Part shown: piece by piece, positions 1-14,981 of the stretch
Position numbering within the stretch: position 1 is the stretch's first letter
Layout: each line of letters begins with the position of its first letter
Origin: Candidatus Bathyarchaeota archaeon
Lineage (GTDB): Archaea > Thermoproteota > Bathyarchaeia > TCS64
Reading direction: 5' to 3'
DNA length: 64,000 nt
Assembly: GCA_018396695.1 (NCBI GenBank)
Contig: JAGTQU010000003.1
Location: 12,899-76,898, forward strand
Translations under genes and position numbers: made by a program
The notes under the pieces: model-generated
Seen by the model: only the letters and a program-made list of their open reading frames with translations
Told to the model about the DNA's origin: nothing
Databases searched by the model: none

Positions 1-89
1 TAGAGCCTCGTCAACTCGATATTCTAACCAGTTATCACTACTGGCCTGTTTTTCTATTCATCGCGAGCACATTTAAACTCGTAACATCA

Positions 90-1313
90 ATGCCAACCGA
101 GTTAATTTTGAAGATCTTTCCCCTGATCAATATCGGACTCTACTTGCTGTTTGCTTATCTTATTTTAAGAATAAAATTTGAATTCAGGTACGCTATTTTA
201 GGATCAGTATTTTTTTTATGTAGTTTCTTTTCTCGCCAACAATATTTTGGTCCTCCTGGCATATCTTATATTTTTTATCTTACAGGATTTCTTCTAATTT
301 CGTGGATATTTTTCACTGATAAAAGAAATAAAGGAATCTTTTCAATTTTATTTTTTTTAATATCAATTTTACTCATATTTACACATGTTTTGACATCATT
401 TTTTTTGATCATATCGCTGTTATCTATATATTTTGTTCACATAATTATAAAAAAATTATCTAATTTTGTTTTGAGTATAACAAGTTTAGGATTAATAATA
501 TGCTTTTTAATATACAATATGTATGCAGTGCCGAACTTCGGTCTTATTAGACTATTCATAAAAAACATTTATGATGGATTAAAATTTTTATCTTTTTTCC
601 GTGAAAGTAATAGAATAATTGGAACGTTTTCTAATGAAATAAGCTACTATAGTTCATGGGCTATTGTTTTCATTAATCTAATCGGATTTGCAATAACATT
701 AATCTTAGGAATTCGAAAAAAAACTAAAATCGAATTGTATAATGCCTATTTAGCAATTAACATAATTATGCTAGGAATATTTGGGGTAATAGGTAGATAT
801 GGAGCACATGAAGCCTATCAAAGAGCATTCATGTTTGGATTAGTACCTTTAGCATATTTCTCAATAAATGTGATGCGAAACAAAATATATATGTTGATTA
901 TATTAATAATTTCTTTAATGTTTCTGAACCTTCCTGCTCAATACGGATCCGATACATTCAGATTAGCTACTGAAAAACAACTTTATGGAAGCAGATTTTT
1001 CGCTTATAATACGCCGAATGAAATAAGTGTTCATGGACAATTCTCACTTTATGTTAGATATTATACTCCAGTCAAACATATTAAATTTGAAGCAATCCCA
1101 GGAACATCTTTGCCATTTACTTATATCCCTAATTCTACTGCAATAATTAATGCGATTACTACAACAGATTATACCATCTTCTCTGAGTTAACATATAACT
1201 TCATTTATTATTATTATGGAAGAAATTTATATGATGAAGTAAATCTAAATACATTAAATAGGGTTTACGATAATTCAGGTTATGAAATTTTTAAACCTCA
1301 TGCTAAAAACTGA
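90..1313 (+). CDS. Polytopic membrane protein (about 9-10 TM helices plus a C-terminal soluble domain of about 130 aa). A glycan polymerase/Wzy-like role is possible but unproven. The reading frame is open back to the window start, so the true start may lie upstream.
   Basis: The translation is extremely hydrophobic with repeated 20-25 aa helices. It has an AT-rich codon composition. The C-terminal 130 residues are hydrophilic and Tyr/Asn-rich. There is no in-frame stop upstream of position 90. Confidence 0.45.
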   Translation: MPTELILKIFPLINIGLYLLFAYLILRIKFEFRYAILGSVFFLCSFFSRQQYFGPPGISYIFYLTGFLLISWIFFTDKRNKGIFSILFFLISILLIFTHVLTSFFLIISLLSIYFVHIIIKKLSNFVLSITSLGLIICFLIYNMYAVPNFGLIRLFIKNIYDGLKFLSFFRESNRIIGTFSNEISYYSSWAIVFINLIGFAITLILGIRKKTKIELYNAYLAINIIMLGIFGVIGRYGAHEAYQRAFMFGLVPLAYFSINVMRNKIYMLIILIISLMFLNLPAQYGSDTFRLATEKQLYGSRFFAYNTPNEISVHGQFSLYVRYYTPVKHIKFEAIPGTSLPFTYIPNSTAIINAITTTDYTIFSELTYNFIYYYYGRNLYDEVNLNTLNRVYDNSGYEIFKPHAKN

Positions 1314-1611
1314 ATCCTTTAAAAAATATTCTAATATATCTCTCCAAATATTTAAGAATGGATAAGATCCATTTTTTTATATCATAGACGTTATCTAATT
1401 GTCGCGTAAATTGTGATTAATGATGATAGAGCACCATGAGGTTTTGAAAAAACCTAAATTTGCCTAACAATTGTGCAGATTAATAATGAAATTTCAGGTT
1501 ATAAATACATAGAAACAAGTTAACATATTTATCGCTATGTTATTATTTTGGCTCTATTTTTGCAGAACCCTTGCTATGAATTTAAGACAGACTAACAAGC
1601 GCCTACTCATC

Positions 1612-2721
1612 TTACTTTATCTCGTAGAAAGCTGGAAGTGGAACATAACCATTGAATAAATTATAAGGTTCTGCTCCACTGTTCTCAGGCTGCATCACCC
1701 AAACATAAACTCGGTCTATTCCCTTAGATTTTGCATAGTCGATAAAAGCTCTTATATAATTTGCTTGGTCTTGCTGATCACTATTATGCCTCCCAAATTC
1801 AGTGATCCATAACTCCTTCCCTCTGCTATGCGCTGCTTGAATCATGGCATTCATCTTAGCCTCTGTTACCCCCCAAACGGATTTATCAGGGTTACGCGGA
1901 TCCCAATAGACGTTTCTGCAAAGGAAGTCAGTAGCGTCATCTATCGCTGAGCTGTAATGCCCAGTACTAGGAGAGTATCCTCCCATAAATCGTACACTAA
2001 CAGGCATTTGGGTCCTCTCCTTAGCCGCACTGATCACGCTTAAGATAAAATTGTTCTCGGAGGTTGAAGCGGTCTGTGCCTGCGGTTCATTAAGAACCAT
2101 CCACGCCTTGACTGTATAACCATCAAATGCTGATATTGCGTTTCTAACATAATTAAGGTACTTCTCACGGTTAACGCTATTGCCTGAAGCTGAATCATCA
2201 AAATATCTGTCCCAAGTTGTGTACCATGTGTGAAGATCTATGTTCACAGCTATCCCTAATGACTGGCACAACGTGATTATTTCCTTCGCCTTTGCTACAC
2301 CACTCGAACTAGGTTGCTCGTTGCTCCATTCATACATAGCGTTTAGGCGAAGCGTTATCTCGGTAAAACCCTGTGCTTTGATTATATTCACGAAAGTTGA
2401 GACTTCGCTGGAAGTCATCGAGTAGAAGTTGATCAGCTCTGCGCTAGCTACAAACCCTGACGGGGATGGCGGTGGCTGCGGTGAAGGTGAGGGGGATGGA
2501 CTGGCAGGTGGAGAAGAACCTTCTTCTCCCTGAGATGCATAAGTGATCACCCCTACTGTTGTTATTGATTTTGTTAATGAAACGGCACCTAACCCAATGT
2601 TTACGTTTAAAGAAACATATATTAGAACAACAATGGAAAATAAATACATATTTTTTATTATACTTGATTTACCAAATATCCTACGAGGTATTAAATTTTT
2701 AATTTTACATGATCTTTTCAT
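1612..2721 (-). CDS. Glycoside hydrolase family 5 (cellulase/mannanase-like), N-terminally membrane-anchored or secreted, with a Pro/Ser-rich linker.
   Basis: N-terminal hydrophobic anchor. A PSPSPSPQPPPSP linker follows. The GH5 acid/base motif is present as LNEP and the nucleophile motif as WITEFG. Confidence 0.75.
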   Translation of the reverse strand: MKRSCKIKNLIPRRIFGKSSIIKNMYLFSIVVLIYVSLNVNIGLGAVSLTKSITTVGVITYASQGEEGSSPPASPSPSPSPQPPPSPSGFVASAELINFYSMTSSEVSTFVNIIKAQGFTEITLRLNAMYEWSNEQPSSSGVAKAKEIITLCQSLGIAVNIDLHTWYTTWDRYFDDSASGNSVNREKYLNYVRNAISAFDGYTVKAWMVLNEPQAQTASTSENNFILSVISAAKERTQMPVSVRFMGGYSPSTGHYSSAIDDATDFLCRNVYWDPRNPDKSVWGVTEAKMNAMIQAAHSRGKELWITEFGRHNSDQQDQANYIRAFIDYAKSKGIDRVYVWVMQPENSGAEPYNLFNGYVPLPAFYEIK

Positions 2722-2839
2722 GGTCTAAATATTTATTAACATAAATCTCTTATATTTGTTATAGAGTAAAAAAACTATTTTTATAATAGGTATATTAATA
2801 ATTTGGCTATAAAGTTGATTTATAATATAGATCATAATT

Positions 2840-3064
2840 ATGGTGATACTCTTGAATCTTCCTCTAGGATTTTCAGATATAAGCAAACTAATAGCTTTAT
2901 TATCAATTATATTGATAATAACATCTGTTATAATCCACCAAAATTATAGATATTCTAATTTGACTCTTGACAGACATTATCTCGAAAAGGTTGCATTATT
3001 CTTAGGCTTGATCACTCTCATACCAATAGCTATGATTGTATTCGAAATAATTATCTTTAGATAA
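2840..3064 (+). CDS. Small two-TM membrane protein, hypothetical.
   Basis: 74-aa ORF with two hydrophobic helices. AT-rich composition. Confidence 0.3.
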   Translation: MVILLNLPLGFSDISKLIALLSIILIITSVIIHQNYRYSNLTLDRHYLEKVALFLGLITLIPIAMIVFEIIIFR

Positions 3065-3545
3065 TTATTCTTTGCCCGACCTATTGCTCGGCTTTGGTCT
3101 TAAACTCGTGTGAAATCACATCTCAGGTATCCAAGGAACTATTCTCAAGGTTCCATGAAAATAATGTTGTCCTGAATCAAGGGATCTTAAGTCACAAAAA
3201 AGGATATGTGTTTCATGATCTAATTTCGAAAATATGGGGATTCTAGTATCGATGCGTGATGTTCATGCCTCTTACTGACGAATTGTAAATCCCAATGCGA
3301 ATCTATTTAGTCCTTATCGAATGTTCAATTTTATTATTGCAATAATTATGATAATTAAAATAAAAAATTACTTGTATTGCGATTTTAAAATATGAATAAT
3401 GATATTTCATAAACCCTCAGAGAAATTAGAAACATTAAATTGTTTTTTAAAGATGGATATAAAAGATAGTTAATTATATTCAATAATTGGACATTTTTCT
3501 AACCAAAAATAATCTTTTTCAATAAGTTTTTGCTTCACACGGTTA

Positions 3546-5585
3546 ATGGCAGGGTTTAACATGATTCCGATAAGGCGAGAGAGAACCAACTTGAGTTTAA
3601 TCCTAAAAATCTTGGTATTAATATCATCTATAACTATAGTTTATTGGCAAGATTTCACAATTTTGTTAAATGAGGCGCTCAACAGCGATTTAGCTACCCA
3701 CATCCTTGCTATACCCTTTCTAGTCGCCTATATTTGTTTCAGAATTCGTCACAGATTTAGAGCTTTAGCCTCCGATATTCTAGTAAACACTAATTCACCA
3801 GCTAGGAGAGCACTTACAAATATAATAGGTATACTTCTATGTGCCTTCGCATACTTCTTGAGATGGACAGGTTCATACAGTTTTATACCATTAGAATACC
3901 ATATAGCTTCATTACCCATTTTCATCTCAGGGCTAATCCTCCTAATCTTTAACTTTCATGTTCTGAGAGCCCTATTCTTTCCAGTAGTTTTTCTACTTTT
4001 CATGATTCCTCCACCAGTTGAACTCGCTCAACAAGTCGGAGGTTACCTCTCATACTATAGCTCTCATGGAGCCTATAATCTCCTAAAGGCAGTTAATCTC
4101 CCTGTGAGGCTTTCTGATCTAGATGGAAACCCTATAATCTTCGTTAAGATCCCTTCAGGAGAGGAGTACCCATTCGTAATAGATCTGGCATGCTCAGGAA
4201 TCTATTCCCTCATAGGATTCCTTATATTCGCACTTTTCTTGGCATACCTCGTCAGAGGGCCATTAATCAAAAAAACTGCTATCCTACTCTTGGGTCTTCC
4301 TTTAATATACCTACTTAACATTCTGAGAATAACGATCCTTGTAATAATCGGCTTCGCTTCGGGACCTTACGCAGCTCTAAATCTCTTTCACATTTTTGGA
4401 GGCTGGTTCCTAATTCTCATTGGAACCCTCATCATATTGCTCACTTCAGAAAAATTATTAAAAGTAAGCTTGTTTGGCTCAGAACCTATTCACTGCAACG
4501 ATTGTGAAAAATATTCAATTAACCAGTATTGTTCATCATGCGGTAAGATGCATCGATTCAAATATAATTTTTCGAGGCTTAGCCTATTAAAAATAATAAG
4601 CATTTTGGCTATTTCAATAATTCTCATCTTTATACAGGTACCAGTTTATAATCTGACAAATGGATCAGCTGAAATATTCATTAAAAAATATTCTGGAGAA
4701 GTATTCACAACTAATATCTTTCCTAAAATTAACGGCTATGAACTCAAATTTGTATATAGAGATACGTCCTTTGAAGAGATAAGTGGACAGGATGCAGCAC
4801 TAATGTACATGTACGCCCCTAGAGACCCTTCTAAACCTTTAGTATGGGTTGGTCTAGAGATTGGCCCAGCTAAGGCAAACCTCCACACCTGGGAAGTATG
4901 CTTAATTACTTATCCACAATCTCTTGGAAGAGAACCTAGCGTTATACAACTCGATTCGAGGGATATCAAACTTCTAGATAATCCTCCCCTTACAGCCCGT
5001 TACTTTGCTTTTATAGATAAGAAAAATAATTTTACAGAGACAATACTCTACTGGTATACAAAATCAGTTTTCAGATCCGAGGGAGAATATGTAGAGAAAT
5101 GGTCGAAGATCAGCGTGATCAAACTGGACGACAATCCTTCAGATTACCTAGAAGCTGAAGAAGAGATCTATCCATTCGCGAAGAGTATAGCTGAATACTG
5201 GCAGCCTGTGGTTACTTGGTCGAAATTTGCACTTGTTATAGCGTATCATGGAGTAACCCTTTTGCTTTTAACAGGGTCATTTATAATCGCCTCTACAGGG
5301 GTATATCTATATGGATTATTTTCTGAAAAAAGACATGCGAAAATAATGTTTAATAAAATAAATAATATAGAAGATAAAACTATTCTGGAGATAATTAAAA
5401 ATACTGAAAATGACGTAATAACTGAAAAGTATGTATCATTAAAATTTGTTGAACGTTTAGGAAAACAGATAGATGAAGATAATATATTAGCAAAACTTTT
5501 AGAAGCAGAGAAAAACGGTCTGATTGAAAGGAAAATCATCAGCTTAAATGACAATCCATACATAACTTGGAAGGCTAAATTCTAG
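3546..5585 (+). CDS. Exosortase/archaeosortase-family transpeptidase-like membrane protein. It is fused to a CxxC...CxxC zinc ribbon, an EpsI-like extracytoplasmic domain and a C-terminal winged-helix-like cytoplasmic tail.
   Basis: N-terminal roughly 300 aa are polytopic. They carry the motif DLACSGIYSL (putative catalytic Cys) followed by LNILRITIL (Asn-x-x-Arg) and a later His in HIFGGW, which is the pattern of the EpsH/archaeosortase family. Then comes CNDCEKY...CSSCGKM. A TM helix and a roughly 190-aa domain containing LHTWEVCL follow, which is EpsI-like. A final TM helix precedes a roughly 95-aa charged tail. Confidence 0.6.
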   Translation: MAGFNMIPIRRERTNLSLILKILVLISSITIVYWQDFTILLNEALNSDLATHILAIPFLVAYICFRIRHRFRALASDILVNTNSPARRALTNIIGILLCAFAYFLRWTGSYSFIPLEYHIASLPIFISGLILLIFNFHVLRALFFPVVFLLFMIPPPVELAQQVGGYLSYYSSHGAYNLLKAVNLPVRLSDLDGNPIIFVKIPSGEEYPFVIDLACSGIYSLIGFLIFALFLAYLVRGPLIKKTAILLLGLPLIYLLNILRITILVIIGFASGPYAALNLFHIFGGWFLILIGTLIILLTSEKLLKVSLFGSEPIHCNDCEKYSINQYCSSCGKMHRFKYNFSRLSLLKIISILAISIILIFIQVPVYNLTNGSAEIFIKKYSGEVFTTNIFPKINGYELKFVYRDTSFEEISGQDAALMYMYAPRDPSKPLVWVGLEIGPAKANLHTWEVCLITYPQSLGREPSVIQLDSRDIKLLDNPPLTARYFAFIDKKNNFTETILYWYTKSVFRSEGEYVEKWSKISVIKLDDNPSDYLEAEEEIYPFAKSIAEYWQPVVTWSKFALVIAYHGVTLLLLTGSFIIASTGVYLYGLFSEKRHAKIMFNKINNIEDKTILEIIKNTENDVITEKYVSLKFVERLGKQIDEDNILAKLLEAEKNGLIERKIISLNDNPYITWKAKF

Positions 5586-5636
5586 AAGATTTTTAAATGA
5601 ATTTCTTAATCTGATTTCTTATTTTTTTAAAAAAAG

Positions 5637-6950
5637 TTGTGCACGGAAAGACCTGAGATGAGCTTTAAACTACTTAGATATCATTATCAGCTTCAACAAT
5701 CGAAGAAATTGAATAAGGAAATACTTAAAGAGATTCAACTTCGAAGATTAAAGGAAATAATATCACATGCTTATCTCAACGTTCCATTCTATCATGAAAA
5801 GTTTGAGAAAGCAAAAATAAAGCCAGAGGATATAAAAACACTGGATGACCTCGAAAAAATCCCATTGACAACGAAAGCCGAAATACAATCCACTCCCTTG
5901 AATTATCTAGTTTCCAGATACGTAAATTTGAATAATTGCGACAGATCGTTAACCAGTGGCACTACGGGAATGCCTCTGACAATAATAATTGACAGAGATT
6001 ATATGGATTTTCAAGTTGCATTATTCGCCAGAACGTATTTTGAAGATGGAGTAAAATTATGGCATAAAATGATGAGAATAGTTGATCCTTTATATTTGCC
6101 TAAGAAAGGGGATTGGTATCAAAAAATAGGATTAATGAAAACGAAGTACGTCTCTCTATTCGAACCCATCGAGAAACAATTTTCTATAGCAAAAAAATAT
6201 AAACCCGACATATTGAGAGGTTTCAGCTCTCAAATCGCTTTGTTGGCATACCATGCTCGTGAGAATGGTGAAGTCTTGAAGCCTAAAATAATTTTCACCT
6301 CAGCAGAATACCTTGACAAAGCTTCCAGAAACCTGATAGAATCAACATTCCTAAGCCAACTATTCGACCTTTACATAAGCACAGAGTTTGGGCTAATGGC
6401 TTGGGAGTGTAAGGCCCATTCAGGGTATCATACTAACATTGAAAGCGTTATGATCGAATTCGTAAAAGATGGTGAACCTGTCACAGATGGTGAGAGTGGG
6501 GAAATAATCTGCACAAACCTCGTTAACAGAGCAATGCCTCTAATCAGATACGACTTAGGAGACGTAGGCATCCCTACGGAGGAAGAATGCACATGTGGGA
6601 GCACTCTGCCTCTCATCAGACTCGTCGAGGGTCGAACAGGAGATTTCCTCGTCACACCGGATAATCGAATAATATCGCCGACGATATTTTTCCCTTATCC
6701 CTTTAACGATGTTGAAGGGATAAAACAATTCAGAATAATACAGGAGAAAAAGGATAAGCTAATCATACAGCTAGTTGCAGATGAAGATTTTAAAAGAAAT
6801 GAACTAGCCCTAGAAAAAGCAAGAAAAGAGATCTGGAAAGTATTCGGTGAAAACATGAATGTTGAATTCCAATTTCTAGACAAAATTAAAAGGGATAATG
6901 AAAGAAAATATAGAAAGATAGTGTCGAAAATACCTATTCATCTCACTTAA
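5637..6950 (+). CDS. Adenylate-forming enzyme of the phenylacetate-CoA ligase / CapK / coenzyme F390 synthetase family.
   Basis: The AMP-binding signature SGTTGMPLTI is present. Length (about 430 aa) and overall motif order match the PaaK family. The gene lies immediately downstream of the exosortase-like gene on the same strand. Confidence 0.75.
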   Translation: MCTERPEMSFKLLRYHYQLQQSKKLNKEILKEIQLRRLKEIISHAYLNVPFYHEKFEKAKIKPEDIKTLDDLEKIPLTTKAEIQSTPLNYLVSRYVNLNNCDRSLTSGTTGMPLTIIIDRDYMDFQVALFARTYFEDGVKLWHKMMRIVDPLYLPKKGDWYQKIGLMKTKYVSLFEPIEKQFSIAKKYKPDILRGFSSQIALLAYHARENGEVLKPKIIFTSAEYLDKASRNLIESTFLSQLFDLYISTEFGLMAWECKAHSGYHTNIESVMIEFVKDGEPVTDGESGEIICTNLVNRAMPLIRYDLGDVGIPTEEECTCGSTLPLIRLVEGRTGDFLVTPDNRIISPTIFFPYPFNDVEGIKQFRIIQEKKDKLIIQLVADEDFKRNELALEKARKEIWKVFGENMNVEFQFLDKIKRDNERKYRKIVSKIPIHLT

Positions 6951-7050
6951 TGATCTTCTTCCCTTTTCTACTTATCCATAAAATAATTACGTAAAACTCT
7001 TTTCTAAAGATTTAAATAACCATATTAAACATTAACAAATAGGTGAAAGA

Positions 7051-7278
7051 TTGAATAAGAATAATAGGAGAATCCTGGCGGCTTCACTGGTGATTATAGG
7101 CTTAACGCTGATATTCATAATAAATGGAGTATTATTTGCGCCTCAACCAGAGCCTACAGTTACTCCAACAGCTGAAAACACAATGGCTCCAGGATTCCAT
7201 GTCCCTGAGATCCCTGGAACTCTAGTTGCCTTAGTATTGGGAGTTATGGGGCTGTTAGTGTTTTATTTAAAGAAGTAG
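7051..7278 (+). CDS. 75-aa protein consisting of an N-terminal signal anchor, a roughly 25-aa Pro/Thr-rich segment, and a PEP-CTERM-like C-terminal sorting signal (VPEIPGT, then a hydrophobic helix, then KK). It is the putative cognate exosortase substrate.
   Basis: The N-terminus is MNKNNRR followed by a 23-aa hydrophobic stretch. The C-terminus is VPEIPGTLVALVLGVMGLLVFYLKK, which matches the tripartite Pro-Glu-Pro / TM / basic architecture of PEP-CTERM and PGF-CTERM signals. The gene is directly downstream of the sortase-ligase pair. Confidence 0.5.
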   Translation: MNKNNRRILAASLVIIGLTLIFIINGVLFAPQPEPTVTPTAENTMAPGFHVPEIPGTLVALVLGVMGLLVFYLKK

Positions 7279-7379
7279 AAAAATAATCTAATAGTTAACG
7301 TGTCTTGATTACTGATTTTCTTAACGGTTTTTCTATATTGCCTACGACTTCGATCTTATAGGCGAATAGTGGAGGCTAT

Positions 7380-8201
7380 ATGGAAATGGTAGAGAATTCC
7401 AGCATTGAAAAGATGGAGAAGCAGATAGAGTCCCTTGAATCGGAGATTAGGAGGCTTAAGAGGAAGCCGACAGGCGCCATAGGGACTCTGATTCTGGCTT
7501 TAGGGCTGATGCTCCTAGCCTTAGCCATCATCGTTGAGCATAACATATCAGCCTTCATCGGAATAGCCTTAACCTTCTGGGGAGCCCTCCTCCTATACGT
7601 CAGGCCTACAAGCTTCGTTAGAAAAGAGATCCTCAACGTTTTATCTACTCAATCCCTTTCCGAGATGGCGGAGATTATTGATGAACTAGGTTACCGAGGG
7701 GCCCCATTCCACGTTTCGCCTCCAAGCCTTCTCGGGATGAGGAGAACGAGGCTCATAATCCCGAAAAACCCTCTCTCGAATCTAGGAGAAGATGCTTCCA
7801 TAGATGAGTTAACGATTACGCCAACACTGATTTCGGTTGATCCCCCCGGGCAGGAGCTATCAAGCCTGATTGAGGAGGAGCTGAGAACAAACTTCTCGGC
7901 GAGCAGCTTAGAGTATGTGGAAAACAATCTTGAGAAGGCTCTGGTGGAAGGGTTAGAACTAGTCGAGTCGTTCGCTATGGAGCAGGAGGGGGAGAGAGTA
8001 TCCGCTAAGTTCAAAGGTAGTGTATTCTTCGACGTTGCGGAAAGGTTAAGCGGTTTGAAGATTAATCCTGCATTTTGCGACCCGCTTACAAGCGCCTTCG
8101 CATGCATCCTCGCAAGGGTGACCCAGAAGAGGGTCACTATAGAAAAGATGGAGCTGAAGCCCGAGGAGAAGACCGTCACAAGCACATACAGGCTTATTTA
8201 A
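7380..8201 (+). CDS. Hypothetical protein with an N-terminal coiled coil, two TM helices and a C-terminal soluble domain.
   Basis: ORF translation. This is the first GC-normal gene after the AT-rich island. Confidence 0.4.
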   Translation: MEMVENSSIEKMEKQIESLESEIRRLKRKPTGAIGTLILALGLMLLALAIIVEHNISAFIGIALTFWGALLLYVRPTSFVRKEILNVLSTQSLSEMAEIIDELGYRGAPFHVSPPSLLGMRRTRLIIPKNPLSNLGEDASIDELTITPTLISVDPPGQELSSLIEEELRTNFSASSLEYVENNLEKALVEGLELVESFAMEQEGERVSAKFKGSVFFDVAERLSGLKINPAFCDPLTSAFACILARVTQKRVTIEKMELKPEEKTVTSTYRLI

Positions 8202-8220: not shown

Positions 8221-8820
8221 TTGACTGGAAAAAAGGAGCTAGAGGAGAAGCTCATAGAAATCATCGAAGCCTTCTCAACTTCTACGGTGAAGGAGCTCCT
8301 CGAAATAGCTCATCTGCAGCTTTCCATCCCAAAGAAGGAGCTGTTGGACATTATCCTCCGCCTACAAGACGAGGGGAGGATAAGCCTTAAGCTGCCGGAG
8401 AAAAGAGCCAAATACAGTTTAAGGGAATATTTCTTTAAAGGAGGGGTCTACTGGTTCTGGTGCATTATCCTTCTCTCAACCACAGCAATGTTGTCGATCT
8501 TCCTGATACCTGAAGACGCTTACCCCATAATCCTTGCAAGATACGTCCTCGGCTCACTCTTCGTCCTCTTCCTACCAGGATTCAGCCTCGTAAAAGCCCT
8601 CTTCCCTAAAAAGGAATTAGATAATGTCGAGAGGATGGTGTTGAGTTTAGGGTTGAGCCTAGCGATTGTGCCTATCTTCGGGCTACTCCTCAACTATACT
8701 CCATGGGGGATAAGGCTTACCCCTATAACCCTAGTGCTCCTTTCTTTCACCATCTTTCTCTCATTTGTGGCTATGATTAGAGAGTATAATGAAAAGTTTC
8801 CTAAACCTGAGGAAGAATAA
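8221..8820 (+). CDS. DUF1616-like archaeal membrane protein (N-terminal wHTH-like segment plus 4 TM helices). TTG start.
   Basis: N-terminal helical domain followed by four hydrophobic helices. The architecture is typical of the archaeal DUF1616 family. Confidence 0.4.
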   Translation: MTGKKELEEKLIEIIEAFSTSTVKELLEIAHLQLSIPKKELLDIILRLQDEGRISLKLPEKRAKYSLREYFFKGGVYWFWCIILLSTTAMLSIFLIPEDAYPIILARYVLGSLFVLFLPGFSLVKALFPKKELDNVERMVLSLGLSLAIVPIFGLLLNYTPWGIRLTPITLVLLSFTIFLSFVAMIREYNEKFPKPEEE

Positions 8821-12364: not shown

Positions 12365-13390
12365 TTGGGAGTAAACCTTACACCGATCGCCACGAGGAAG
12401 ATCGTCAATTTAGAGTTTCTAAGAGGCAGAACCATAGCCTTCGATGCCTCCATAGAGCTTCATCAGTTCCTAGCTTTAATTAGAACCCATGACGGGAGAC
12501 TACTCTCCGACGATAAGGGTGAAGTTACCTCTCATCTCGTCGGACTCGCCTTTAGAACAACGAGGCTGATATTAGATTACGACATCAGACCTGTCTTCGT
12601 CTTCGACGGTAAGCCACCCTCCTTAAAGATGATTGCGATTGAAAAACGTAGAGAGGTGCGAAGAAAGGCTGAGGAAGAATACTCGGAAGCCGTGAAGCAT
12701 GGCGACTACGCGACAGCCTTCTCCAAAGCTGTCATGACCGGGACTCTAACGAAGAGCATAATCTCTGACTCGAAGCGTCTCCTTGATCTCCTTGGAATCC
12801 CATATGTTCAGGCGCCAGGTGAAGGCGAAGCCCAAGCAGCTTACATGGCTAAGAGGGGTAGCACGTGGGGTGTTGGAAGCCGGGACTATGATTCACTATT
12901 GTTCGGGGCACCCAGACTCGTAAGGCATATTACGATACAGGGTGAAGAATACCTACCTAGCAAGGGCATATCACGCAGAATTAAGCCAGAGTATATTGAG
13001 CTGGAGGGTTTTCTGCGACACTATGGCTTGACTAGAGAGCAGCTGATAGACCTCTCTATTCTCATAGGCACAGACTTCAACAAAGGTGTAAAAGGCATCG
13101 GTCCGAAGACGGCTCTAAAACTCGTCAAGAAGCACGGGAGGCTGGAGGAGATGCCTGAGGAGATCCTTAACGAGCTTAAGGGTTTCGAAGAGGTGCGTAA
13201 ACTCTATCTGGATCCCGAAGTAACTGAGGAATATGAGATTAAATGGGGTTCTCTCGATGAGGAGGGCTTATACTCATTCCTTTGCGATGAGCATTCATTC
13301 TCAAAGAATAGGGTGGAAGTAATAGCCAAGCGGATGAGGAGCTTCCACAGTAAGAGAACCCTCGAAGGATGGCTCCCAGGAGGCGGTTAG
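12365..13390 (+). CDS. fen: Flap endonuclease 1 (FEN-1). TTG start.
   Basis: The N-terminal XPG-N region GVNLTPIA...IAFDASIELHQFL, the XPG-I domain and the H3TH motif (IGTDFNKGVKGIGPKTA) are present. Length is 341 aa. Confidence 0.9.
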   Translation: MGVNLTPIATRKIVNLEFLRGRTIAFDASIELHQFLALIRTHDGRLLSDDKGEVTSHLVGLAFRTTRLILDYDIRPVFVFDGKPPSLKMIAIEKRREVRRKAEEEYSEAVKHGDYATAFSKAVMTGTLTKSIISDSKRLLDLLGIPYVQAPGEGEAQAAYMAKRGSTWGVGSRDYDSLLFGAPRLVRHITIQGEEYLPSKGISRRIKPEYIELEGFLRHYGLTREQLIDLSILIGTDFNKGVKGIGPKTALKLVKKHGRLEEMPEEILNELKGFEEVRKLYLDPEVTEEYEIKWGSLDEEGLYSFLCDEHSFSKNRVEVIAKRMRSFHSKRTLEGWLPGGG

Positions 13391-13391
13391 A

Positions 13392-14981
13392 ATGGCTCCA
13401 ACTAGCTTCTCCGAGCTCGCTAAGCTCTGCAGGGACCTCGAATCGACGACGAAGCGTAAGGAGAAGACCAGGCTGTTAGCGGAGTTTCTGAGGAGGCTTG
13501 AACCTGATGAAGTCGCTCCAGCGGTGCTCCTCATAGTCGGCGCCGTATTCCCGGAGTTCGATACACGAACCCTTGACGTAGGATACATGACCGTTAAACG
13601 CATCTTCGAAGGAGGGAAACAAACAATGCTGATGGATAAACCTCTAACAATAAAGGAGGCTTACAGGAGCTTAGACGAGGTAGCTAAGGCTTCAGGAAAG
13701 GGGTCTAGGCGTTTGAAGGAGAGCCTCCTCAGGGGGCTGATGAGCCGAGCATCTTCGGAGGAGGTGGAGGTTCTCACACGGATAATCTTCGGAGAGATGA
13801 GGATCGGCGTAAACGAAGGGATGATGATAGAGGGGATCGCGGAAGCAGCAGGGATTGAAGACTCAATCATTCGAAGAGCTTTGATGCTGACTGGAGATAT
13901 AGGTAAAGTTGCGAAAACGGCGCTAACCGAGGGGATTGGAGAGGTCAATAGGATAAGCATGGCGATGTTCGTGCCGTTGAAGCCGATGCTAGCAGCCATG
14001 TCCTACGATATTGGAGAAGTCTTAGAGGAGCATGGAGGCGTATCAGCTTTCGAGTTCAAGTTCGACGGGGCGAGGATACAGGCTCACAAATCAGGGGGAG
14101 AAGTCAGGATATTTAGTAGACGCTTAACCGATGTGACTGAGAGCCTCCCTGACATAGTTGAGGTGATTAGGGAAAGGATTAAGCCAGATGAGGTTATTCT
14201 CGACGGTGAAGCGGTTGCAGTAGGCGCCGGAGGCAAGCCCCTCCCATTCCAAGACCTGATGAGAAGATTCACCAGAGTGCAGAAGATAGAAGAGACGGTG
14301 GAGAAGATCCCGCTAAGGCTTCACATCTTCGACATACTATACCATAATGGCAAACTCCTAATCGACGAGCCTTACGAAGAACGCTGGAGGCTACTCAAAA
14401 GCATCTGCCCGAATGAACTGATTGCAGAGAGAATCGTCTCGGGCGATGTGCACGGGATCGAGGTTTTCCTCAAGCGTGCTCTTGAAGCAGGACATGAAGG
14501 ACTCATGGCGAAGCGTCTGGACAGCAGGTATACGCCTGGTGTTCGAGGAAAAGGATGGTTCAAGATTAAGCCTGCGGAGACCCTCGACCTAGTCATAGTA
14601 GCGGCTGACTGGGGGTATGGCCGTCGGACTGGCTGGCTCAGCAACTACCATCTAGCCGCCAGAGACGGAGAAGATTATGCGATGATCGGGAAGACCTTTA
14701 AAGGGCTTACAGATGAAGAATTCAGCTGGATGACGAATAGGCTTCAGGAGCTGAAGATCGGCGAGATTGAGGCGACGGTCTACGTTAAGCCTGAGATAGT
14801 CGTCGAAGTCGACTTCAATGAGATACAGAGGAGCCCCCATTACACGTCAGGATTCGCTCTAAGATTCGCTAGAATCAAGAGGATAAGGACAGATAAGGGA
14901 CCGGGGGATGCCGACAAGCTGGAAAGTGTAAAGGAACTCTACGACAAACAGTTCGCATACAAATCCAAAATTGATTTATGA
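13392..14981 (+). CDS. lig: ATP-dependent DNA ligase.
   Basis: Adenylation motif I, EFKFDGARIQ (KxDGxR), is present together with the remaining ligase motifs and an OB domain. The gene is spaced 1 nt after the fen stop. Confidence 0.9.
   Translation: MAPTSFSELAKLCRDLESTTKRKEKTRLLAEFLRRLEPDEVAPAVLLIVGAVFPEFDTRTLDVGYMTVKRIFEGGKQTMLMDKPLTIKEAYRSLDEVAKASGKGSRRLKESLLRGLMSRASSEEVEVLTRIIFGEMRIGVNEGMMIEGIAEAAGIEDSIIRRALMLTGDIGKVAKTALTEGIGEVNRISMAMFVPLKPMLAAMSYDIGEVLEEHGGVSAFEFKFDGARIQAHKSGGEVRIFSRRLTDVTESLPDIVEVIRERIKPDEVILDGEAVAVGAGGKPLPFQDLMRRFTRVQKIEETVEKIPLRLHIFDILYHNGKLLIDEPYEERWRLLKSICPNELIAERIVSGDVHGIEVFLKRALEAGHEGLMAKRLDSRYTPGVRGKGWFKIKPAETLDLVIVAADWGYGRRTGWLSNYHLAARDGEDYAMIGKTFKGLTDEEFSWMTNRLQELKIGEIEATVYVKPEIVVEVDFNEIQRSPHYTSGFALRFARIKRIRTDKGPGDADKLESVKELYDKQFAYKSKIDL

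Follow-up and report, generated by a model that had tools for sequence, protein, structure and literature searches.

A 75-codon gene beside an exosortase-family enzyme in a Bathyarchaeial genome probably encodes a minimal sorting substrate

The stretch analyzed here is 64,000 nucleotides of DNA from a Candidatus Bathyarchaeota archaeon (assembly GCA_018396695.1, contig JAGTQU010000003.1; hereafter the window). A short open reading frame (ORF) on its forward strand, at 7051..7278, encodes a 75-residue protein with the sequence MNKNNRRILAASLVIIGLTLIFIINGVLFAPQPEPTVTPTAENTMAPGFHVPEIPGTLVALVLGVMGLLVFYLKK, which NCBI annotates as hypothetical protein KEJ47_01580 of a Candidatus Bathyarchaeota metagenome-assembled genome. 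Our analysis suggests that this mini ORF is probably a functional gene whose product serves the neighboring exosortase-family enzyme as a minimal substrate, and that this protein belongs in or near a Bathyarchaeial family of "stalk-only" proteins of ∼75–100 residues. The ORF has the anatomy that the first-pass annotation had ascribed to it, with anchor, linker, motif, helix, and basic end all present. Translation begins at a TTG codon at 7051 and stops at 7276–7278. The n-region MNKNNRR and a hydrophobic segment of 17–23 residues (ILAASLVIIGLTLIFIINGVLFA) can be read from the sequence at 7051..7140, followed by a Pro/Thr-rich linker of about 21–25 residues (PQPEPTVTPTAENTMAPGFH, 7141..7200) that holds six Pro and five Thr. 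Residues 51–57 form the recognition motif VPEIPGT (7201..7221), after which come a 16-residue hydrophobic helix (LVALVLGVMGLLVFYL, 7222..7269) and two Lys residues (7270..7275) that form a predicted cytoplasmic stop-transfer signal. The N-terminal segment is probably a signal anchor that is left uncleaved. No other ORF in the window carries such a tail. A putative promoter and ribosome-binding site of its own lie at 7011..7046 on the same strand, with a TATA box (TTTAAATA, 7011..7018) ∼37 nucleotides upstream of the start and a GGTGA Shine-Dalgarno sequence (7042..7046) that ends 4 nucleotides before it.

Four observations show that the 75-codon ORF is genuine and conserved as a gene: a same-length orthologue exists, the ratio of nonsynonymous to synonymous substitution rates (dN/dS) is 0.18, the expression signals are kept, and a related copy has decayed. 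The orthologue is found in a locus, L081, whose exosortase is 79% identical to that of the window and whose gene order is the same; it sits at the same place, is likewise 75 residues long, and likewise starts with TTG. The two genes share 59% amino acid identity and 68% nucleotide identity with zero indels, and the dN/dS of 0.18 compares with 0.09–0.11 for four neighbor genes (Nei-Gojobori method). Constraint is tighter on the anchor and tail than on the linker: the N-terminal segment at 7051..7140 is 71% identical between the two proteins and the VPEIPGT motif is unchanged, whereas the linker, the least constrained part of the protein, is 39% identical (pN 0.33 versus pS 0.58). Both GGTGA and the TATA box are kept in L081, where the other intergenic DNA is full of indels. 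A second relative, L082, has an exosortase 81% identical to that of the window; here the ligase gene that precedes the mini gene in the window is missing, and the mini gene is present at the same place as a decayed copy (4265..4750) with four frame-breaking or length-changing indels of 5, 1, 3, and 2 nucleotides and without the start codon. The decayed copy implies that the mini sequence erodes once selection is relaxed. Ligase and intact mini gene have thus both been lost from L082.

The tail of the mini protein has counterparts throughout the genomic surroundings of related exosortases. Our collection comprised 80 genomic loci and 80 from metagenomes, each surrounding an exosortase homologue, together with contigs from an exact protein look-up; the 169 loci analyzed are almost all from Bathyarchaeia, a few being labeled Hodarchaeales or Methanocella. 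A strict tail pattern ([VILTY]-P-[ED], 14–24 hydrophobic residues, then K/R) ends 147 of the 11,944 ORFs in these loci, compared with 0 of 12,788 ORFs from reversed DNA. Almost all of the tailed ORFs (138/147) are on the exosortase strand, and of the 113 loci above 8 kb in length, 84 hold one or more. From 84 tails we derived the consensus F-V-V-P-E-x-[P/A]-x-G, followed by ∼20 hydrophobic residues and K-K-R-K; the residue after PE is variable (Y in 21, V in 13, S in 11, L in 10, I in 9, and P in 7). The carriers are unrelated secreted proteins of 150–900 residues with ordinary signal peptides, and the tail is always at the extreme C-terminus; for these proteins a sorting signal is the simplest account. 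The PEP-CTERM model TIGR02595 matches 16 of 64 tails, namely those with VPEP[AG]T (best E 8e-7), and PF07589 matches 10.

These tails bear on the standing of the window's motif. The first-pass annotation had proposed VPEIPGT as a novel, distinct signal class, a claim that did not hold up: the motif is best described, from sequence comparison, as a local form, shorter by one residue, of a PEP-CTERM-like VPE tail (VPE-x-P-x-GT, with a relaxed third position) that is found throughout the lineage. The string FVIPEIPGT, which includes the window's motif, also ends an unrelated 200-residue secreted protein in L021. The same annotation had staked its reading against a motif that occurs nowhere else and a gene without ribosome-binding or promoter context in homologous loci; what was found is the recurrence of the motif in L021 and a conserved Shine-Dalgarno sequence and TATA box in L081. 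The tails of some large neighboring proteins in the collection are PEF-CTERM-like, with VVPEF[PS]S or IPEFQS (L015 1422..4235; L024 872..3430, minus strand; L023 12699..13370, minus strand; L154 8029..8985, minus strand), and TIGR03024 gives weak matches to 2 of the 64 tails; the genomes concerned may therefore handle tails of more than one subtype. A few natural variants break the motif, among them a 165-residue cassette protein of the "FSKST..VPE" type (L010 6506..7003) in which VAD replaces VPE (..SKSVFIVADSTTFAL..), P0140 (VILENP), and P0142 (PESRLGT). These may be inactive copies or sequencing errors.

Proteins built like the window protein recur in the exosortase loci, where we found nine distinct ORFs of 75–101 residues with its architecture. 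A profile made from the nine recovers 90 clusters from 5.8 billion proteins, with E-values down to 8e-31, lengths of 72–137 residues (median 84), and an unvarying architecture; all 90 clusters lack Pfam domains and informative names, and the other mini proteins match nothing in Pfam or NCBIfam. Members of the family start with M-[S/K]-[R/K]-K and a hydrophobic segment of ∼20 residues; the hydrophobic runs (17–23 residues) give way at once to polar residues, and no small-x-small site is present. The linkers that follow are 19–46 residues long and lack Cys; P (19%) and E (14%) are frequent in them, as are N, T, S, and Q, and their net charge averages about -4. The proteins end in [L/F]-V-[I/V]-P-E-x-P-[L/I/V]-G-T-L-G-L-I-S-A-L-A-A-G-F-G..KKRR. 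N-glycosylation sequons occur in 19 of 86 family linkers and are absent from the window linker, and we therefore rejected an N-glycosylated linker as a family-wide feature. The window protein fits this architecture in its anchor, linker, VPE tail, and basic end, and its 75 residues lie within the 72–110 residues taken as the family's size range; its linker carries a charge of -2, compared with the family mean of about -4. In a phmmer search with the window protein, the mini proteins of L079 (1e-6) and L010 (1e-4) rank above a PGF-type protein of L005 (0.04). On architecture and genomic context the window protein is probably a divergent member of the Bathyarchaeial mini family or a close architectural analogue of it. 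The idea of a substrate that is little more than a sorting signal, put forward on the first reading of the ORF, is supported by this 90-cluster family and its ties to the exosortase cassette.

The presumed processing enzyme is a 679-residue exosortase-family fusion encoded at 3546..5585 on the forward strand; its gene ends 1.46 kb upstream of the mini ORF. It scores 129.5 bits against PF09721 (cutoff 25.7) and 62.2 bits against TIGR04178 (cutoff 23), which bears out the initial identification of an adjacent sortase. All subfamily scores fall below their cutoffs, with 97 bits for XrtD (400), 91 for XrtW (425), 79 for XrtA (208), 25.8 for ArtA (75), and 20 for ArtC (100), and by these scores the enzyme is a member of the exosortase/archaeosortase family outside every named Xrt/Art subfamily. 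More than 330 homologues share its length. Among 24 homologues, Arg261 and His282 show no variation, and Cys216 is conserved in at least 90%. In an AlphaFold2 model with a mean predicted local distance difference test score of 78.8, a transmembrane core (residues 14–303), which contains all three residues, is followed by a poorly modeled segment containing CxxC..CxxC (317–332), a further transmembrane helix, a β-rich extracytoplasmic domain (364–528), a long helix, and a C-terminal winged helix (608–677). A Foldseek search of the model against the PDB returned nothing at E < 0.001.

If the mini protein is indeed a substrate of this enzyme, its path can be outlined. The basic N-terminus and the 17–23-residue hydrophobic segment would insert through Sec or the signal recognition particle with the N-terminus inside, and the segment would probably be kept as an anchor, leaving the Pro/Thr-rich linker outside the cell. 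By the positive-inside rule and by the tail that it shares with the secreted carriers, the C-terminal helix should span the membrane with KK inside, which would place VPEIPGT at the outer face. By analogy with ArtA, the exosortase would then use Cys216, Arg261, and His282 to cleave at or near VPE through a thioester, freeing the helix-KK remnant, and the new C-terminus may be handed to a nucleophile such as a lipid headgroup amine or a glycan. Since the N-terminal segment is anchor-like, the mature product may stay membrane-bound and not be released as a free short peptide.

Several observations weigh against our reading of the mini protein as a processed substrate in or near the mini family. 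The spacing from PE to GT is one residue shorter in the window protein than in the family, and the window protein ends in only two basic residues. When we built a family profile hidden Markov model (HMM; alignment A4) leaving out the window and L081 proteins, it aligned the window protein end to end (HMM positions 1–78 of 84) at 18.8 bits with an E-value of 6.6e-4 among 11,944 ORFs, and the L081 orthologue at 17.3 bits (E 0.0026). The match to the core family is thus marginal and could reflect convergent architecture and composition. A tail HMM built without the window tail gives that tail a low score of 14.4 bits (E 0.008 among 6512 ORFs) and the L081 orthologue just 5.1 bits, and no curated model of a sorting signal matches the window protein or its tail, even at E ≤ 10. 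With the window protein as sole query, phmmer returned no relatives from 1.84 billion representatives. Our literature search found no data on enzyme-dependent cleavage or attachment for this exosortase clade, and the protein sequence taken by itself fits an uncleaved two-helix hairpin equally well.

Such a hairpin is the first alternative to be weighed. It would be a structural or regulatory subunit, or a pseudo-substrate, of a complex of exosortase with the DUF7982 and DUF1616 membrane proteins encoded beside it, and not a processed cargo. The N-terminal segment does look like a permanent anchor, with 17–23 hydrophobic residues and no small-x-small site; the size of the family is tightly constrained and its place in the cassette is fixed, as for small partners such as the 74-residue protein SMALL74 described below; and in the core family the helix that follows the motif (GTLGLISALAAGFG) is conserved beyond the needs of a stop-transfer sequence. 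The same VPE-x-P-x-GT motif, helix, and KKR tail are found, however, on dozens of unrelated secreted domain proteins, for which a sorting signal is the simplest account, and the tail always stands at the extreme C-terminus. We consider the hairpin unlikely.

A bolder form of the substrate reading would make the mini proteins covalent membrane tethers instead of displayed cargo, in which the anchor is kept and the exosortase joins the ..VPE end to a glycan or polymer exported by the Wzx flippase and glycosyltransferases of the cassette, or to a lipid. We offer this as a speculation that is rather unlikely to be right as it stands. Were it true, the stalk, which has about 25–45 residues and in the family is both acidic and rich in Pro, would fasten a surface polysaccharide or a matrix layer to the archaeal membrane, and the mini family would be a natural minimal substrate with which to identify the attachment partner of the exosortase.

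It is very unlikely that the mini ORF is a functionless, decaying remnant of a larger VPE-tailed cassette protein whose globular domain was lost by deletion upon insertion of the ligase gene. This idea draws on sister loci in which the protein encoded just after the exosortase has about 216–235 residues (216 in L084, 233 in L085) and ends in ..NPGFVVPE.., which the window's APGFHVPE resembles, and on the L082 copy, which is a pseudogene. A remnant would not be expected to keep a dN/dS of 0.18 and an equal length with no indels over ∼32% nucleotide divergence, or a conserved start codon, Shine-Dalgarno sequence, and TATA box; the phmmer ranking places mini proteins above the PGF-type protein, and mini proteins elsewhere form a size-constrained family. 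With similarity favoring the mini proteins and selection purifying, derivation by truncation from the ∼220-residue NPGFVVPE protein was rejected. Least probable of all is that the mini ORF encodes the precursor for a short peptide that the neighboring PaaK/CapK-like ligase would modify. In favor of this idea, the ligase gene stands immediately before the mini gene, in the same orientation, in the window and L081; L082 lacks both the ligase and an intact mini gene; and ligases of the CapK_C type are found repeatedly in the vicinity of the cassette. Against it, mini genes elsewhere come after a Wzx flippase or before the exosortase and have no ligase next to them, and the ligase is cytoplasmic in type whereas the linker is predicted to be extracellular.

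The ligase itself is an adenylate-forming enzyme encoded at 5637..6950 on the forward strand, between the exosortase and the mini gene, with a CapK_C domain and matches to NF045666 (1e-46) and PaaK (2e-34) that are both below cutoffs. COG1541/CapK-type ligases are usually part of polysaccharide loci, which also counts against a ligase-modified peptide. Ligase and mini gene adjoin in the window and L081 only; the link to the ligase suggested in the first-pass annotation therefore finds little support, and a functional coupling of the two was rejected. CapK_C ligases recur near the cassette without adjoining the mini gene in L036, L038, L142, L152, L156, and L172, and in L172 the ligase is accompanied by an ATP-grasp gene and a PGA_cap (CapA-like) gene. 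Such company hints that a polymer, amide-linked or capsule-like, is produced in parallel with the sorting system.

We return to the mini gene as a probable exosortase substrate gene and to the cassette that holds it. Four mini matches that were traced independently of the exosortase searches all (4/4) proved to lie in an exosortase cassette, on one strand, with the mini gene last. The order there is exosortase, DUF7982, a 70-residue protein, in some cases a ∼240-residue VPE-tailed protein, DUF1616, a Wzx-type flippase, and the mini gene, which starts 2–4.3 kb downstream of the stop codon of the long exosortase. The mini gene is immediately upstream of the exosortase in L107/L108, L116/L117, and L125, and in L084 and L085 the 216- and 233-residue VPE proteins come directly after the exosortase. 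In the window the order is 74-residue protein, exosortase, ligase, mini gene, DUF7982, and DUF1616, with the mini protein as the sole VPE-tailed product; the cassette of this lineage is a rearranged, compact version. The cassette (exosortase, DUF7982, 70-residue protein, DUF1616, flippase, and mini protein) likely builds part of the cell surface, and the flippase, the flanking glycosyltransferases, and a glycoside hydrolase family 5 (GH5) gene point to a surface-glycan context.

The other window genes of this conserved cassette are all on the forward strand. The 74-residue two-helix membrane protein SMALL74 (2840..3064) belongs to no curated Pfam or NCBIfam family and has homologues in 88 ORFs of the 169 loci, adjoining the exosortase or DUF7982. 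The DUF7982 membrane protein (7380..8201; PF25939 in relatives) and the DUF1616 membrane protein (8221..8820; PF07760, E 1.9e-29), which has an N-terminal region resembling a winged helix-turn-helix, are represented by 102 and 70 ORFs, respectively, of the same loci. Upstream of the exosortase are a polytopic membrane protein and, on the reverse strand, a GH5-like glycosidase (1612..2721) with an N-terminal anchor and a Pro/Ser-rich linker (SPPASPSPSPSPQPPPSPS). GH5-like homologues stand beside the cassette in L016, L020, L027, L033, L082, L134, L157, and L170, and a YdjM-family membrane protein (PF04307) is often encoded near the cassette or the mini gene (L079 12893..13612, L083 12132..12761, L169, L170). 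Positions 1..8000 of the window form a low-GC island (31–41% GC, versus 44–48% at 8–16 kb) that could be a surface locus subject to variation or horizontal exchange. The island carries the whole surface cassette, and housekeeping genes adjoin it, including FEN1-like (12365..13390) and ATP-dependent DNA ligase-like (13392..14981) genes.

Direct searches around and with the mini ORF gave little else. A scan against Pfam and NCBIfam returned no match; Rfam over 6500..7800 returned no family, save a subthreshold match to sR14 at 7511..7562; and an exact look-up of the product returned no further contig. With the single 75-residue sequence, the word-indexed and phmmer searches found only the query itself and one spurious match to a transmembrane region (P0122). 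Weak AT-rich inverted repeats bracket the ORF (6907–6940/7306–7339, 71% complementary; 7000–7019/7263–7282, 80% complementary) and are probably chance matches.

Neither Pfam nor NCBIfam annotates the mini family or its cassette, and small genes of this type are systematically left "hypothetical". Bathyarchaeia are abundant sediment archaea without cultured models, and our results indicate that they possess a sorting system of PEP-CTERM-like kind, most of which escapes present curated models. Although exosortase and PEP-CTERM systems are widespread, experiments have yet to establish where exosortases cleave, which acceptor they use, and what becomes of the product; proteins of ∼80 residues made of anchor, linker, and tail are ideal minimal substrates. 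The mini proteins are tied genetically to one clade of long exosortase fusions and to a Wzx flippase, and could be used for mass spectrometry, co-folding predictions, and heterologous reconstitution.

Among known systems, the small sortase substrates of Gram-positive bacteria (NCBIfam NF058583, LAXTG small protein) offer a parallel in form, each being a very short secreted protein that is mainly a C-terminal sorting signal. The sortase enzyme, the motif, and the envelope are unrelated, however, and the likeness in sequence is that of a generic helix with a basic tail. Closer at hand is the PGF-CTERM/ArtA system of Euryarchaeota, which is archaeal and uses an enzyme of the same superfamily. ArtA is the only member of that superfamily with experimental support for C-terminal cleavage and lipid attachment (PMC7157517), for which reason we took it as the mechanistic template above; in its model, a Cys-173 thioester is resolved by archaetidylethanolamine (PMC7157517). 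The two systems differ in that PGF directly precedes the helix in ArtA substrates, whereas in the window protein it lies upstream of VPE (APGFHVPE); in that the window enzyme reaches only 25.8 bits against the ArtA cutoff of 75; and in that PF18204 does not match the window tail. A PGF-CTERM reading of the window's APGF was rejected, as L081 has GPKF at this place and the string is not placed before the helix.

The closest relative of the window system is PEP-CTERM/exosortase sorting. Both have a tripartite tail at the extreme C-terminus, in which a V-P-E core precedes a hydrophobic helix and a basic cluster; in both, a polytopic enzyme of the EpsH family (EpsH being XrtA-type) is encoded nearby; and both are set among polysaccharide-export and glycosyltransferase genes (Wzx, GT2/GT4, and GH5). 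The window enzyme scores higher on the bacterial XrtD, XrtW, and XrtA models than on the archaeosortases, and a quarter of the neighboring tails match the PEP-CTERM model. Of the features that define PEP-CTERM proteins, the window protein has the helix and the basic end (KK here, KKRK in relatives), and exosortase co-occurrence is seen across the 169 loci; the Pro-Glu-Pro motif is replaced by P-E-I-P, and the cutoffs of TIGR02595 and PF07589 are not reached. The third motif residue is thus not Pro but I in the window and Y, V, S, or L elsewhere. The window system also differs in its archaeal host, in an enzyme that is a ∼670-residue fusion with an outside domain and a winged helix-turn-helix, and in a mini substrate without a passenger domain. 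We found no paper joining Bathyarchaeota with PEP-CTERM, and the literature that pairs "exosortase" with "Bathyarchaeota" has ANME archaea as its subject and does not describe this system. According to a review, exosortases themselves have not been analyzed experimentally (PMC6098224). PEP-CTERM was reported absent from Archaea in 2006 and was first linked to exopolysaccharide loci (PMC1569441), and the surface-glycan context of the window cassette matches that original link.

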